This document shows, one piece after another, positions 8,013 to 27,524 of a stretch of DNA of 39,664 nt. The notes beneath the pieces are model-generated. The model ran no database searches. It worked only from the letters and a program-made list of their open reading frames with translations, and had not been told where the DNA came from. This DNA comes from a virus (Duplodnaviria > Heunggongvirae > Uroviricota > Caudoviricetes): positions 1-39,664 of IMG/VR virus record IMGVR_UViG_2563366953_000005. One strand, 5' to 3'. Each line of letters opens with the position of its first letter. The stretch's first letter is position 1. Both the position numbers and the translations under genes were made by a program.

Positions 8013-8041
8013 GGCCGCGAAAGCGGCCTGTGACATGTCAC
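8013..8041. repeat. GNRA-loop hairpin (ggccgc-gaaa-gcggcc) fused to palindrome GTGACATGTCAC (copy 1 of 3)
   Basis: Perfect 6-bp stem with GAAA loop at 8013-8028, directly followed by the 12-bp perfect palindrome at 8030-8041; located 3' of the 7748-8005 gene. Confidence 0.45.
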
Positions 8042-8198
8042 ACTCAAGCTATGACAAACCTATGTACCCTGCTCCACCAGATAATATCAAAACAACTGCT
8101 ACAGCAAATTCACCGTCTTCAATGATACATTTACGATTCATAACGCCAAGGGCAACAAGCACAAATACAACAAGAATAAAAGCAATCATTTCTCATCC

Positions 8199-10673
8199 TT
8201 ATTGCGGAGTGACATCCTGAGGTCGCCACCAGTATGTCTGGTTAAACTCTTTCTTCGAACGTTGCTCCATTTTACGCAAATAGCCTGGTGAAAAATACTC
8301 CTGCATCTGGTTAAAGATCATGTGATCGAGAGCCGCCTTCAAGTACCAGAGATTCGCACCAGGCATCAGGCCTTTCCCCAGCTTAACCAGATCACCACCA
8401 GTCTGCTCATTCTTCCCTTCCACAGCATTTAACGGTATGCCCTGAGAAATCTTCACTACGTCATCAACCAGACCAGCTACCGGGCCAAGCATCGACGCCA
8501 GCGCGCCGCTTCCGTACCTAGTGTGATCTGACAATAAAAAGTCACCGTAAAGGCCAAGACCACCACCTTTCAGTAGAGCACCAAGCCAAAATTTAGCAGC
8601 ATCTTCTCCTGTCATCTCGCGAGGATTACGACCAGACGCAAGGTCGTTAAGTTGCTGCGACAAAGCGCCAAGAATGGTCGTACTGGCAATAAACGTCGCA
8701 ATATATGCCGCACGCCCACCAGCAGACGGCATACCCATAGCGCGTGACCAGTGACGCATAACCACCGAGATAGGGAACGATTTAAACAGGAAAACACTTC
8801 TCGTTAATTCACCTTTCCATGTTCCACGCTGAATACCAGAACCGGTTATCAGTTGCTCACGTGCTCCCGGTGTAATAACAGCCATATCAACTTCTTCAGT
8901 TACGGCACCGAGCAGTTTACGCATTGCCTCAAATTTCACGCGTTCAGGCTCACCAAGATGTTTAACTGCTGAATCAGGGATACGCATAATGCTTTCCGGT
9001 GTCAGCATCGTATTATTACCGTCCCCCCAATCCTCCTGTTGTGCCAGCTTCCATACGCTCCAGTCTGTGTCAGTAATCCCTTTGCTTTTCAGGATACGAA
9101 AATCAGAGTCATCGAGGCTACGAAGGTCTGGTGTCCGTGACACTACTTCTCCCAGGCTTCCCATCATGGTTACGCCATAGGCGCGCTTGTGCGCATCTGA
9201 CCATGCTGTAAGCCCACTGGCACGCATTACCGCCGTTGCCGCCCAACGAGACACTGACGGCCCCATATTATCCATCGCCCAGCGGTTAACGCTGCCAAGT
9301 AGAGATTCCATCGCCAGACCAGCGCGGCGCGCCCGCGCAAGTTCTGTACGGTTCGTTGGGTCCATAGCTTCAAGCTGGTTGCGGAATAACTGGTTCATTG
9401 GAAGGTTGGTCACCTTCGCAGACAGATACATGGTTCCAAGATCAGAGAACGATGATAGCAACGCAGATCCGAGTCTGCTGGCAACCAGCCAGTTGCGGAT
9501 ATTGTCAGACCATCGCGCGATGTGCGGATTCGCTACAGGCTGTGTCTTTCCGGAAATAAAGTTGTACAGATTCTCTGTGTTGTTCGCCAGCCGCTCGACT
9601 TTACCGGTTTTACTCGGGTTAGCTGTTGCCGTTTCTGCCTTCACCTGATCAAGAAGAGAGCGGAAAACATGATCGGGGTTTGGGCCATATGTTTCCACCA
9701 GTGCAATATCTTTACTGATACCTTCCAGGTGACCGACCATGATTTCCCATAGAGAGCGATCGCCATAAAGTTGCTGATATTGCAGATAGGAATCTGCATC
9801 TTTGAAATGTATCTGTCGTGATGCATTACCACGGTTAGCACGTGCGCCGGAAATTCGCATTCCGGTATCAGTAAGCTTATTCAGCCCACCAGTAGCGATC
9901 GTGTTATAAGCCTCTCCAAGAAATGCAGACAACTCGGCATCGTTCATCAGTTGTCCATCGGCTCGGATATAATATTTGCGATCCAGCTTACCTATAACAT
10001 CGCTAACCCACTTATCCTTTGATACCGCCCCAACCTTTTCCATAGAATGATGTTGAGGGAACCCCCAGTTTTCGAGATAGCCAATGTCCCCACCAGCATC
10101 ATTAAACCGGCGGCGCAGTAGATCTGTCACTTCTCTCCACGCCTTAGCACCTTTTCTTGCTTTAGCATTGCCAGTATTTTGCCCTCGCATTTCATATACC
10201 AGGTCACGTACGCCCGCTTCATCTTCAAACAGACCAAAAAAGCGAGGATCAACTGCTTCGAATGCCTCCTGCAATTGACTCAATGCATAATCACGAGTGG
10301 CTTTTGTTCTGGACTCAACAGAGAGGAAATTCGATTTACCGTCTGCATTAAAAGCAATAGTACGGTTAAGAGCGCCAAGTTTCCCATCAGCCCCTTGATA
10401 GCTATTGATAAATTTATCCAATCTCTGACGTGCGGCTATAGTGAGGGCCACACGACGTTTCTTTAATGCCGCTTCTCGCTGTAATTCTTCAGATGCCAAT
10501 TGTGCTGCACGATATAGCCGCTCTGATTCGGAAAGTTGTCTCCACGACATCGGGTCATCACGAGCAATGGAGCGCATATTTCGATAAATGCGGTCTTCAA
10601 TGTTCTGTATTTCTCGCGCCGTTAACGTGCGCTGCGCCGCCTGCTGGACCGCTTGTATACATTCCTGTCTCAT
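8199..10673 (-). CDS. Internal virion / ejection protein (large)
   Basis: 824 aa; position after the other internal-protein genes and before the tailspike, as for the large ejection proteins of T7-like podoviruses; no specific catalytic motif recognised. Confidence 0.45.
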   Translation of the reverse strand: MRQECIQAVQQAAQRTLTAREIQNIEDRIYRNMRSIARDDPMSWRQLSESERLYRAAQLASEELQREAALKKRRVALTIAARQRLDKFINSYQGADGKLGALNRTIAFNADGKSNFLSVESRTKATRDYALSQLQEAFEAVDPRFFGLFEDEAGVRDLVYEMRGQNTGNAKARKGAKAWREVTDLLRRRFNDAGGDIGYLENWGFPQHHSMEKVGAVSKDKWVSDVIGKLDRKYYIRADGQLMNDAELSAFLGEAYNTIATGGLNKLTDTGMRISGARANRGNASRQIHFKDADSYLQYQQLYGDRSLWEIMVGHLEGISKDIALVETYGPNPDHVFRSLLDQVKAETATANPSKTGKVERLANNTENLYNFISGKTQPVANPHIARWSDNIRNWLVASRLGSALLSSFSDLGTMYLSAKVTNLPMNQLFRNQLEAMDPTNRTELARARRAGLAMESLLGSVNRWAMDNMGPSVSRWAATAVMRASGLTAWSDAHKRAYGVTMMGSLGEVVSRTPDLRSLDDSDFRILKSKGITDTDWSVWKLAQQEDWGDGNNTMLTPESIMRIPDSAVKHLGEPERVKFEAMRKLLGAVTEEVDMAVITPGAREQLITGSGIQRGTWKGELTRSVFLFKSFPISVVMRHWSRAMGMPSAGGRAAYIATFIASTTILGALSQQLNDLASGRNPREMTGEDAAKFWLGALLKGGGLGLYGDFLLSDHTRYGSGALASMLGPVAGLVDDVVKISQGIPLNAVEGKNEQTGGDLVKLGKGLMPGANLWYLKAALDHMIFNQMQEYFSPGYLRKMEQRSKKEFNQTYWWRPQDVTPQ

Positions 10674-10678
10674 TTAAT

Positions 10679-27434: not shown

Positions 27435-27445
27435 TAGTACCATGC

Positions 27446-27471
27446 AAAATAAAGCCGCCATAGTTGGCGGC
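27446..27471 (-). terminator. Candidate terminator upstream of the late operon
   Basis: On the minus strand: gccgcca-acta-tggcggc followed by tttatttt. Confidence 0.4.
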
Positions 27472-27512
27472 AGTATTCAAAACCCATCAAATTCATCATG
27501 CATAATCTACTC

Positions 27513-27524
27513 GTGACATGTCAC
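27513..27524. repeat. Palindrome GTGACATGTCAC (copy 3 of 3)
   Basis: Perfect 12-bp palindrome between the 27521-27874 gene and the terminator/operators upstream of terS. Confidence 0.45.

Follow-up and report, generated by a model that had tools for sequence, protein, structure and literature searches.

Regulators that pair a ribbon-helix-helix (RHH) fold with a palindromic operator are well known. In mycobacteriophages of the L5 type, stoperators, which are oriented asymmetric 13-mers present about 30 times per genome and bound by the prophage repressor, are dispersed at gene boundaries away from promoters and have been proposed to act on elongating polymerase. MatP and its matS sites form a host chromosome-organizing system, and the bacterial range of MatP appears to include the hosts of the phages considered here. 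Epsilon15/phiV10-like phages are temperate, serotype-converting phages of Salmonella and E. coli O157; we know of no account of when their late genes are expressed. A literature search returned nothing relevant on regulation in epsilon15-like phages, and the ZX5 paper is confined to the repressor, antirepressor, and integrase. We analyzed the IMG/VR virus record IMGVR_UViG_2563366953_000005 over its whole stretch of 39,664 bases (the window), which similarity searches identified as an epsilon15/phiV10-like podophage of the genus Uetakevirus with its late genes on the minus strand. Here we report that a 12-bp palindrome, GTGACATGTCAC (GTGAC-NN-GTCAC type), is probably the cognate operator of a predicted RHH-type protein encoded at 27521-27859. 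With less assurance, we also favor on balance the whole reading, in which this operator of the 112-amino-acid (aa) protein would control the passage of RNA polymerase at transcription-unit boundaries.

Exact matches to the 12-mer occurred only at 27513-27524 (copy A), 25248-25259 (copy B), and 8030-8041 (copy C), and none were found in 100 dinucleotide-preserving shuffles of the window. This bears out an earlier reading made from the letters alone (the sequence-only reading), which had held three identical 12-mers to be beyond chance. Allowing up to two mismatches added one match, at 22224, which is intragenic and within chance expectation. The base after each copy is A (ACT at the 8030 copy, AAA at the 25248 copy, and ACT at the 27513 copy). 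A literature search did not find the 12-mer in any paper.

Each of the three copies is followed by a predicted terminator, when read on the strand on which that terminator functions. Downstream of copy A on the minus strand, after a gap of 41 nucleotides (nt), an intrinsic terminator at 27454-27471 (GCCGCCAACTATGGCGGC then TTTATTTT) separates the copy from terS; its presence before terS had been claimed earlier and was confirmed on the minus strand at 27471-27454, and the epsilon15 annotation places a rho-independent terminator at the equivalent position. Copy B begins 4 nt past the stop of the plus-strand gene 24887-25243 and is followed, again after 4 nt, by a plus-strand intrinsic terminator at 25264-25283 (AGCCAGCCGATGAGCTGGCT then TTGTTTT), which has an annotated equivalent in phiV10, while terL converges from the opposite side. 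Copies A and B are 2.27 kb apart and span terS-terL. Copy C lies 7 nt past the minus-strand stop of gene 8049-8189 and, 1 nt further in the late direction, meets a minus-strand terminator-like hairpin at 8013-8028 (GGCCGCTTTCGCGGCC then CTTAAATTT), annotated as a terminator in both phiV10 and epsilon15; seen from the other strand, it is 24 nt past the stop of the plus-strand gene 7748-8005, with the hairpin between. The placement of copies B and C 3′ of plus-strand genes and beside hairpins, as described previously, was thus found unchanged.

Read in late orientation, the early-right operon, whose last open reading frame is 27521-27859, is followed by copy A, the terminator at 27471-27454, terS, and terL; then come the hairpin and copy B, opposite a plus-strand island, and the portal to tail genes; at the end, gene 8049-8189 is followed by copy C, the terminator at 8028-8013, the converging plus-strand gene 7748-8005, and the tailspike gene. 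The early-right, plus-strand island, and structural units therefore each end in GTGACATGTCAC plus a terminator.

The link to a candidate binding protein comes from copy A. The minus-strand TGA stop (27521-27523) of the open reading frame 27521-27859 falls within this copy, an overlap that the sequence-only reading overlooked. The 112-aa product belongs to phrog_536, with epsilon15 gp49, phiV10 p55, and N15 gp46 as homologues; proteins of this group are labelled "hypothetical" wherever a source names them, and the window protein had no significant match in Pfam, NCBIfam, or PDB sequence searches. Among 1.84 billion proteins the family formed 211 clusters at 50% identity, nearly all of 45-165 aa. 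Its carriers are phages of Enterobacterales, Vibrio, and Aeromonas and include the Pectobacterium myophage ZF40 (gp22, 64% identity), P2-like Yersinia phages (about 42%), N15 (gp46, 35%), Vibrio phages (30%, with many carriers), Klebsiella N15-like phages, and Aeromonas phages.

The pairing of gene and site recurs in these unrelated phages. In a set of 33 species-level loci, obtained by scanning one genome per bacterial species, the TGA of the family gene made up positions 2-4 of GTGAC-NN-GTCAC in 22. The stop codon of Yersinia P2-like phage gp14 lies inside GTGACGCGTCAC and that of N15 gp46 inside GTGACTGGTCAC, while in ZF40 GTGACATGTCAC stands 3 nt past the gp22 stop. Both ZF40 and N15 carry two further GTGAC-NN-GTCAC copies with the same center as the gene-linked copy. 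The family gene of Vibrio phage K303 has no site at its stop; nevertheless, the K303 genome holds three sites of 12 bp, including one located 20 nt before terS. By our own estimate, the three sites each in N15, ZF40, and K303 compare with about 0.04 expected per genome (0.02-0.04 per 20-40 kb); genomes carrying the family typically have one to four copies. Furthermore, when viral contigs were scanned with the 14-mer GTGACATGTCACAA without selection for the gene, the family gene was present in 38 of 119 short stretches among the matches listed, a scan used for co-occurrence only, as some chance matches are expected at that database size. The earlier proposal that the palindrome binds a phage regulator is therefore supported and now has a candidate, the product of 27521-27859.

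In six prophage loci (L249, L294, L305, L309, L314, and L315) the family gene was frameshifted or fragmentary; at least one palindrome was left in four of them and none in L305 and L309. In N15 the two further sites are at 28550 and 33237; the antirepressor operon has one of them in its leader, and repA contains the other. The antirepressor site recalls copy C beside the antirepressor-like gene of the window. In Pantoea/Erwinia prophages (L103, L104, L105, L108, and L113) a hairpin, CCYG-(A/T)TGCAG-CRGG, lies about 20 nt past the gene-linked palindrome and just before the next gene, and its sequence changes look compensatory.

Across the family the GTGAC half-sites are invariant, whereas the central dinucleotide (AT, CG, TG/CA, or CT/AG) tracks the protein clade. 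That the half-sites should not vary while the proteins are as little as 30% identical would also be expected if a conserved host factor of Enterobacterales and Vibrio, MatP or another, read the palindrome and its link to the phage gene were positional only; the half-sites equal those of matS, and the host range of the phages appears to match the MatP range. Nevertheless, we regard this explanation as very improbable because of the 12-bp spacing, the clade-specific centers, and the reported absence of matS from prophages. With a spacer of 2 bp instead of 3, the half-sites are shifted relative to each other by 1 bp; the center tracks the phage protein clade; and the overlap with the stop codon recurs in four unrelated phage backgrounds. 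True matS was reported absent from 500 Escherichia/Salmonella prophages (PMC3603311), an argument for selection against MatP binding in phages; the 12-mer, by contrast, is enriched. One 13-bp site was seen: in K303 (19491-19503), GTGACACCGTCAC fits the host matS consensus, overlaps a phage-gene stop, and is followed by a hairpin.

A structure of the 112-aa protein was predicted with AlphaFold2. An initial model, built on a shallow alignment (pLDDT 58, no meaningful Foldseek matches), was replaced by one from a deeper alignment (pLDDT 85). The N-terminal half of the latter comprises a basic helix (5-19), an extended segment (20-29), and a helix (30-42), and is predicted to adopt a ribbon-helix-helix (beta-strand, helix, helix) fold; the C-terminal half comprises a long helix (52-74), a region rich in Cys, of which three are invariant and a fourth nearly so, and a short C-terminal helix. 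A symmetric 12-bp site with a free 2-bp center is compatible with a putative RHH dimer that would insert its two-stranded ribbon into the major groove. Pfam RHH matches were below threshold and restricted to 5 of 69 family members, not including the window protein. Alignment of the family to the MatP sequence of 4D8J by hhalign gave a probability of 0.1%, and superposition was limited to the RHH region.

The C-terminal half pointed elsewhere. The best matches of the family profile among PDB sequences, TraR and YbiI, were weak (E = 0.017-0.03), and hhalign against F-plasmid TraR gave a probability of 77% (E = 2e-5) across the long helix and CxxC-N17-C. As judged by eye from alignments, the family has CxxC-N17-C followed by xxT, with Thr in place of the fourth Cys, for which the other conserved Cys (PxGC) may substitute; in the window protein the motif reads CxxC-N16-C, the gap of 16 or 17 residues being counted by eye. 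The DxxDxA motif of TraR is absent, the aligned region being R-x-P-Y-x-x-x-E-Y behind a 50-residue domain. No match to DksA was obtained with hhalign, and the 112-aa protein matched no Q antiterminator family in Pfam or PHROG.

Sites inside coding sequence provided a separate line of evidence. In ZF40-like lambdoid phages (L240-L302), the cI/cro immunity region has an exact palindrome on each side, the two being usually 1.9-2.5 kb apart (5125 and 7622 in ZF40). Both are intragenic: a cII-like gene holds one, and a gp08-like gene on the opposite strand holds the other. The reading frame is such that each is translated as (C/R)DMS(Q/H). The cII-like gene contained the palindrome in 57 of 80 loci; homologues without it differ at that point (RDISR, RDGPQQ, or SDVSQQ), and three of them have the site about 110 nt upstream of cII instead. 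Because the retained site fixes the peptide and the site-free homologues carry other residues, selection appears to act on the DNA sequence of the palindrome. Within the 10-kb flanks covered, the family gene or a frameshifted remnant lay downstream in 56 of the 80 cII-type loci. The association of gene and site in these loci is strong, not perfect.

The palindrome was also conserved at fixed positions among relatives of the window. As the sequence-only reading had proposed, related phages were searched for the 12-mer and its positions, and the exact 12-mer was kept at all three homologous positions in PAS61, SPN1S, and epsilon15. In phiV10 it was exact at two of the three (B and C), while the equivalent of copy A spans the record ends with one mismatch (GTGACATGTTAC). 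Copy B was kept in seven further species-level loci as well, and copy C was kept in all four named phages despite differing flanks. When 5-13 diverse Uetakevirus-like loci were compared without gaps, the flanks of 20-30 nt had an identity of 0.36-0.76 and the core one of 1.00, and in 80 near-identical IMG/VR relatives about 90-95% of the copies were exact, a few carrying single substitutions. A degenerate fourth copy (GTGACATGTCAT or GTGACATGGCAT) lies over the Rz spanin stop in SPN1S (26722) and epsilon15 (26618); the segment that carries it is deleted in the window at about position 1250. More generally, the palindrome often supplies or directly follows the stops of other genes, such as a 277-aa gene in L098, Rz in SPN1S and epsilon15, and K303 gene 0027.

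Two other roles for the palindrome were disfavored. A cos or pac end was dismissed, as the start of the phiV10 record inside copy A is merely the end of its last annotated gene. A restriction or methylation target seems unlikely in view of the conservation at the level of the 12-mer, the variable center, and the ordinary frequency of the half-site GTSAC (60 observed versus 74 expected).

In close relatives (L008-L087) the sequence changes abruptly at the outer edges of the equivalents of copies A and B. At copy A, 24 contigs have an alternative kind of downstream sequence, and the abrupt change there implies that gene and palindrome move together as one module. Copy B is abutted by at least eight unrelated morons, and GGTGTTA, the stop codon plus 4 nt, is retained in six of the copy B variants listed. 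The idea that the palindrome is a signature of the cassette that delivered the morons consequently holds in so far as copy B is a mosaic joint; it fails in that the palindrome stays fixed while the morons change, and in that it also occurs inside genes and in phages without a moron at that place.

These mosaic junctions, which run exactly to the edges of copies A and B, together with the location of sites at gene boundaries, could also suggest that no protein is involved and that the palindrome is either a recombination joint kept by module exchange or an RNA hairpin element at 3′ ends. This is the least probable of the explanations weighed. A homology of 12 bp is too short to drive recombination, and a joint explains neither the symmetric conservation of half-sites around a free center nor the exact retention, with the peptide fixed, in coding sequence; a pure joint is disfavored for this last reason above all. 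As RNA, the palindrome folds with only -1.2 kcal/mol, no better than shuffles, and its "stem" shows no compensatory change, and the N15 sites with a non-palindromic center occur in either orientation relative to transcription. Symmetric conservation and a free center are better accounted for by recognition of duplex DNA by a dimer.

The relation to terminators was then quantified. A hairpin plus T-run started within 45 nt downstream in 59 of 188 unique GTGAC-NN-GTCAC contexts (31%; the contexts were de-duplicated and are phylogenetically non-independent), and in 34 of these it started within 0-4 nt. At 4,000 random positions the figure was 3.6%, so that the sites are about 9-fold enriched (binomial P about 1e-38).

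This enrichment upstream of terminators is left unexplained by the main rival, an architectural role. In that explanation the same protein would use the same sites, with dimers at distant palindromes bridging or looping phage DNA like MatP-matS or lambda CI at OL-OR; loops would enclose the immunity region in lambdoid relatives and terS-terL, between copies A and B, in the window. In support, matS (GTGACRNYGTCAC) has the same half-sites, genomes have two to four dispersed sites, the intragenic pair of ZF40-like phages flanks cI/cro at a distance that is often 1.9-2.5 kb, and the long helix 52-74 could, in the model, make a coiled coil. On the other hand, the spacing among cII-type loci varies from 1.9 to 5.4 kb, sequence homology to MatP is not detectable, and in many members, such as P2-like Yersinia and Pantoea prophages, the 20 kb covered contained just one site. 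We consider looping unlikely.

A promoter-bound late activator was likewise evaluated. Here the palindrome-bound protein would recruit RNA polymerase and start transcripts at each copy, in keeping with the position of its gene immediately upstream of terS, as with the late activators of other phages, with the resemblance of GTGACA to a -35 hexamer on both strands, and with a possible RNA-polymerase-contacting TraR-like finger in the family. However, the "possible promoter" suggested earlier at copy A did not hold up: the region had 4 promoter-like matches versus 3.7 from shuffles, and the sole match at the copy uses GTGACA itself as its -35 and has its downstream sequence replaced in relatives. 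No promoter-like matches were found at copy B or C, both of which face terminators and converging genes, and a transcript from copy A would reach the terminator after about 30-40 nt, as estimated from the coordinates. The same family moreover occurs in phages with late regulators of their own, namely ZF40 and N15, which have Q proteins, and the P2-like Yersinia phage. The late-activator part of the earlier proposal was therefore abandoned as quite improbable.

We thus return to a protein that acts on polymerase passage. Control at this step is suggested by the terminator enrichment together with the possible polymerase-contacting zinc finger, by the location of the gene at the very end of the early genes, ahead of the terminator and terS, and by the nut-like positions of the sites in both early operons of lambdoid relatives. 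A dimer would bind each palindrome through its two GTGAC half-sites across an uncontacted 2-bp spacer. Each site would mark the 3′ end of one unit, with copy A closing the early-right operon, copy B the plus-strand tRNA/gp66-like unit facing terL, and copy C the structural operon facing the antirepressor gene, and the bound protein would decide the fate of RNA polymerase at the adjacent terminator. Being made last in the early operon, the protein could act in cis, meeting polymerase at the palindrome and permitting read-through of the next terminator. Copy A would then couple early transcription to terS, and copy C would let late transcripts run on into the genes for the tailspike and for lysis. 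In its logic the palindrome would be comparable to lambda QBE or nut, as a loading site encoded in the DNA. The earlier suggestion of a protein that controls read-through across the morons is plausible to this extent, as a terminator follows closely after every copy.

The direction of the effect can be proposed only tentatively. Protein-dependent read-through of terminators is a possible choice that we put first; close behind it, and somewhat more doubtful, comes a symmetric roadblock that would reinforce one-way terminators at convergent junctions. Rather unlikely in its full detail, though worth stating, is a new type of site-loaded elongation factor: an RHH dimer would wait on the duplex palindrome before a terminator or early in an operon, would be handed to passing polymerase through a degenerate TraR-like zinc finger, and would alter downstream termination. 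Such a factor would make the palindrome a DNA-encoded functional analogue of nut/QBE that works in either orientation, with matS-like half-sites at a spacing orthogonal to host MatP, and would constitute a mobile module shared among podo-, myo-, and siphophages infecting Enterobacterales and Vibrio.

Several observations weigh against an operator that controls polymerase passage. The 188 contexts are not independent, and no terminator adjoins the sites within genes of lambdoid phages or within N15 repA. At copy B a terminator lies ahead only for transcription in the moron direction, and a read-through model has no need of it there. Some family genes lack a site at their stop, and Aeromonas phage 85AhydR10PP has no site at all; conversely, 16 of the 80 cII-type loci have sites and no family gene within 10 kb downstream, and others have only frameshifted remnants. 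The half-sites show no co-variation with the protein down to 30% identity, which a conserved host factor could explain equally well. Finally, sequence-profile searches detected no relationship to RHH proteins or to MatP.

A second dispersed motif, TTACC-N5-GGTAA, occurred 12 times in the window with up to one mismatch (3169, 7657, 24275, 27402, 27420, 31287, 31349, 33294, 33631, 33679, 34391, and 34453), compared with 0.84 expected, and matches sites annotated as repressor operators in epsilon15. Outside the immunity region it heads late segments, with 27402 and 27420 before terS 24275 before the head genes, and 7657 before the tailspike gene, between it and the antirepressor gene. Since copies head each late segment, transcription units appear to begin with a repressor operator. 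The palindrome itself was rejected as a prophage repressor operator, the epsilon15 operator ATTACC-N5-GGTAAT being an unrelated, separate motif.

The genes around the copies were characterized as follows. The minus-strand gene 8049-8189, last in the structural operon, was read from the sequence as a small membrane-protein gene of 46 codons plus stop and is equivalent to phiV10 p21, a 141-nt "integral membrane protein" gene. The plus-strand gene 7748-8005, which converges on copy C, is antirepressor-like: it belongs to phrog_450, matches the anti-repressor phrog_1760 weakly, and has a homologue in SPC32H/SPC32N annotated "ant: anti-repressor". About 20 nt upstream of it, at 7709-7728, is a near-perfect LexA (SOS) box, TACTGTATATTTATACAGTT, and similar CTGT-N8-ACAG boxes lie downstream of the palindrome in loci L088, L089, and L095. 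The plus-strand gene 24887-25243, which ends beside copy B, belongs to the Sf6 gp66/N4 gp49 family (PF13876, E = 3.9e-34). The plus-strand island that interrupts the late genes also holds a tRNA-Arg (anticodon TCT) at 24612-24688; the minus-strand open reading frame 24618-24869, equivalent to phiV10 p04, overlaps this tRNA and is probably no real gene.

These results provide a concrete, testable protein-site pair at every transcription-unit boundary of epsilon15/phiV10-like phages. The same orphan family and sites in ZF40-, N15-, and P2-like phages point to a regulatory element common to many temperate phages. The near-identity to matS, taken with the reported avoidance of matS by prophages, raises the question of whether one base of spacing can separate a phage system from the chromosome-organizing system of its host.

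Compared with the described systems, the phage pair resembles MatP/matS in that both use an inverted repeat of GTGAC half-sites and several dispersed sites per replicon. It differs in that matS is 13 bp whereas the window copies and nearly all related phage sites, except the K303 13-mer, are 12 bp; in that the 112-aa protein lacks a four-helix bundle and detectable homology to MatP, with a Cys-rich C terminus where MatP has a coiled coil; and in that the phage sites cluster at terminators. TraR/DksA proteins (F TraR and lambda Orf73) are likewise small and phage-encoded and share a long helix followed by CxxC-N17-C with conserved P and G. TraR, however, does not bind DNA and acts through the DxxDxA motif of its N-terminal helix, which reaches the active site of RNA polymerase (PMC9239242). 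The phage protein lacks this motif, has Thr in place of the fourth Cys, and has the N terminus of its helix blocked by the predicted RHH domain. Like stoperators, the palindrome is a short protein-binding site, as proposed here, dispersed at gene boundaries of a temperate phage genome; unlike them, it is symmetric and present three times, and the prophage repressor uses a different operator.

Lambda Q/QBE and N/nut share with this locus a regulator gene just upstream of the terminator that separates the late genes and a site that precedes a terminator; in lambdoid relatives there is one site per early operon, near cro/cII and in the leftward operon, comparable to nutR and nutL. There is no homology to Q or N, however, and the phage site is a symmetric duplex palindrome, not a promoter-embedded element or an RNA hairpin. 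As a Q-type element, copy A has a terminator 41 nt downstream, with no promoter above chance and no conservation of the downstream sequence; antitermination would be the inferred outcome here, and ZF40 and N15 encode separate Q-like genes too. With the RHH repressors (P22 Arc/Mnt, CopG, the antitoxins ParD/TacA/KacA, and ParG), the pair shares a small protein with a modelled beta-alpha-alpha fold, a dyad-symmetric operator of about 12 bp, and physical linkage of gene and site. Known members bind their own promoters, whereas here the linked site lies at the 3′ end of the gene over its stop and other sites lie at the ends of other units or inside genes, and the phage protein adds a basic N-terminal helix and a C-terminal zinc-finger-like module. 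What is new relative to all of these systems is a site over the stop codon at the 3′ end of its gene, with dispersed copies at unit ends or within genes, in a module that is spread over unrelated phage types and has matS-like half-sites with a spacer one base shorter.

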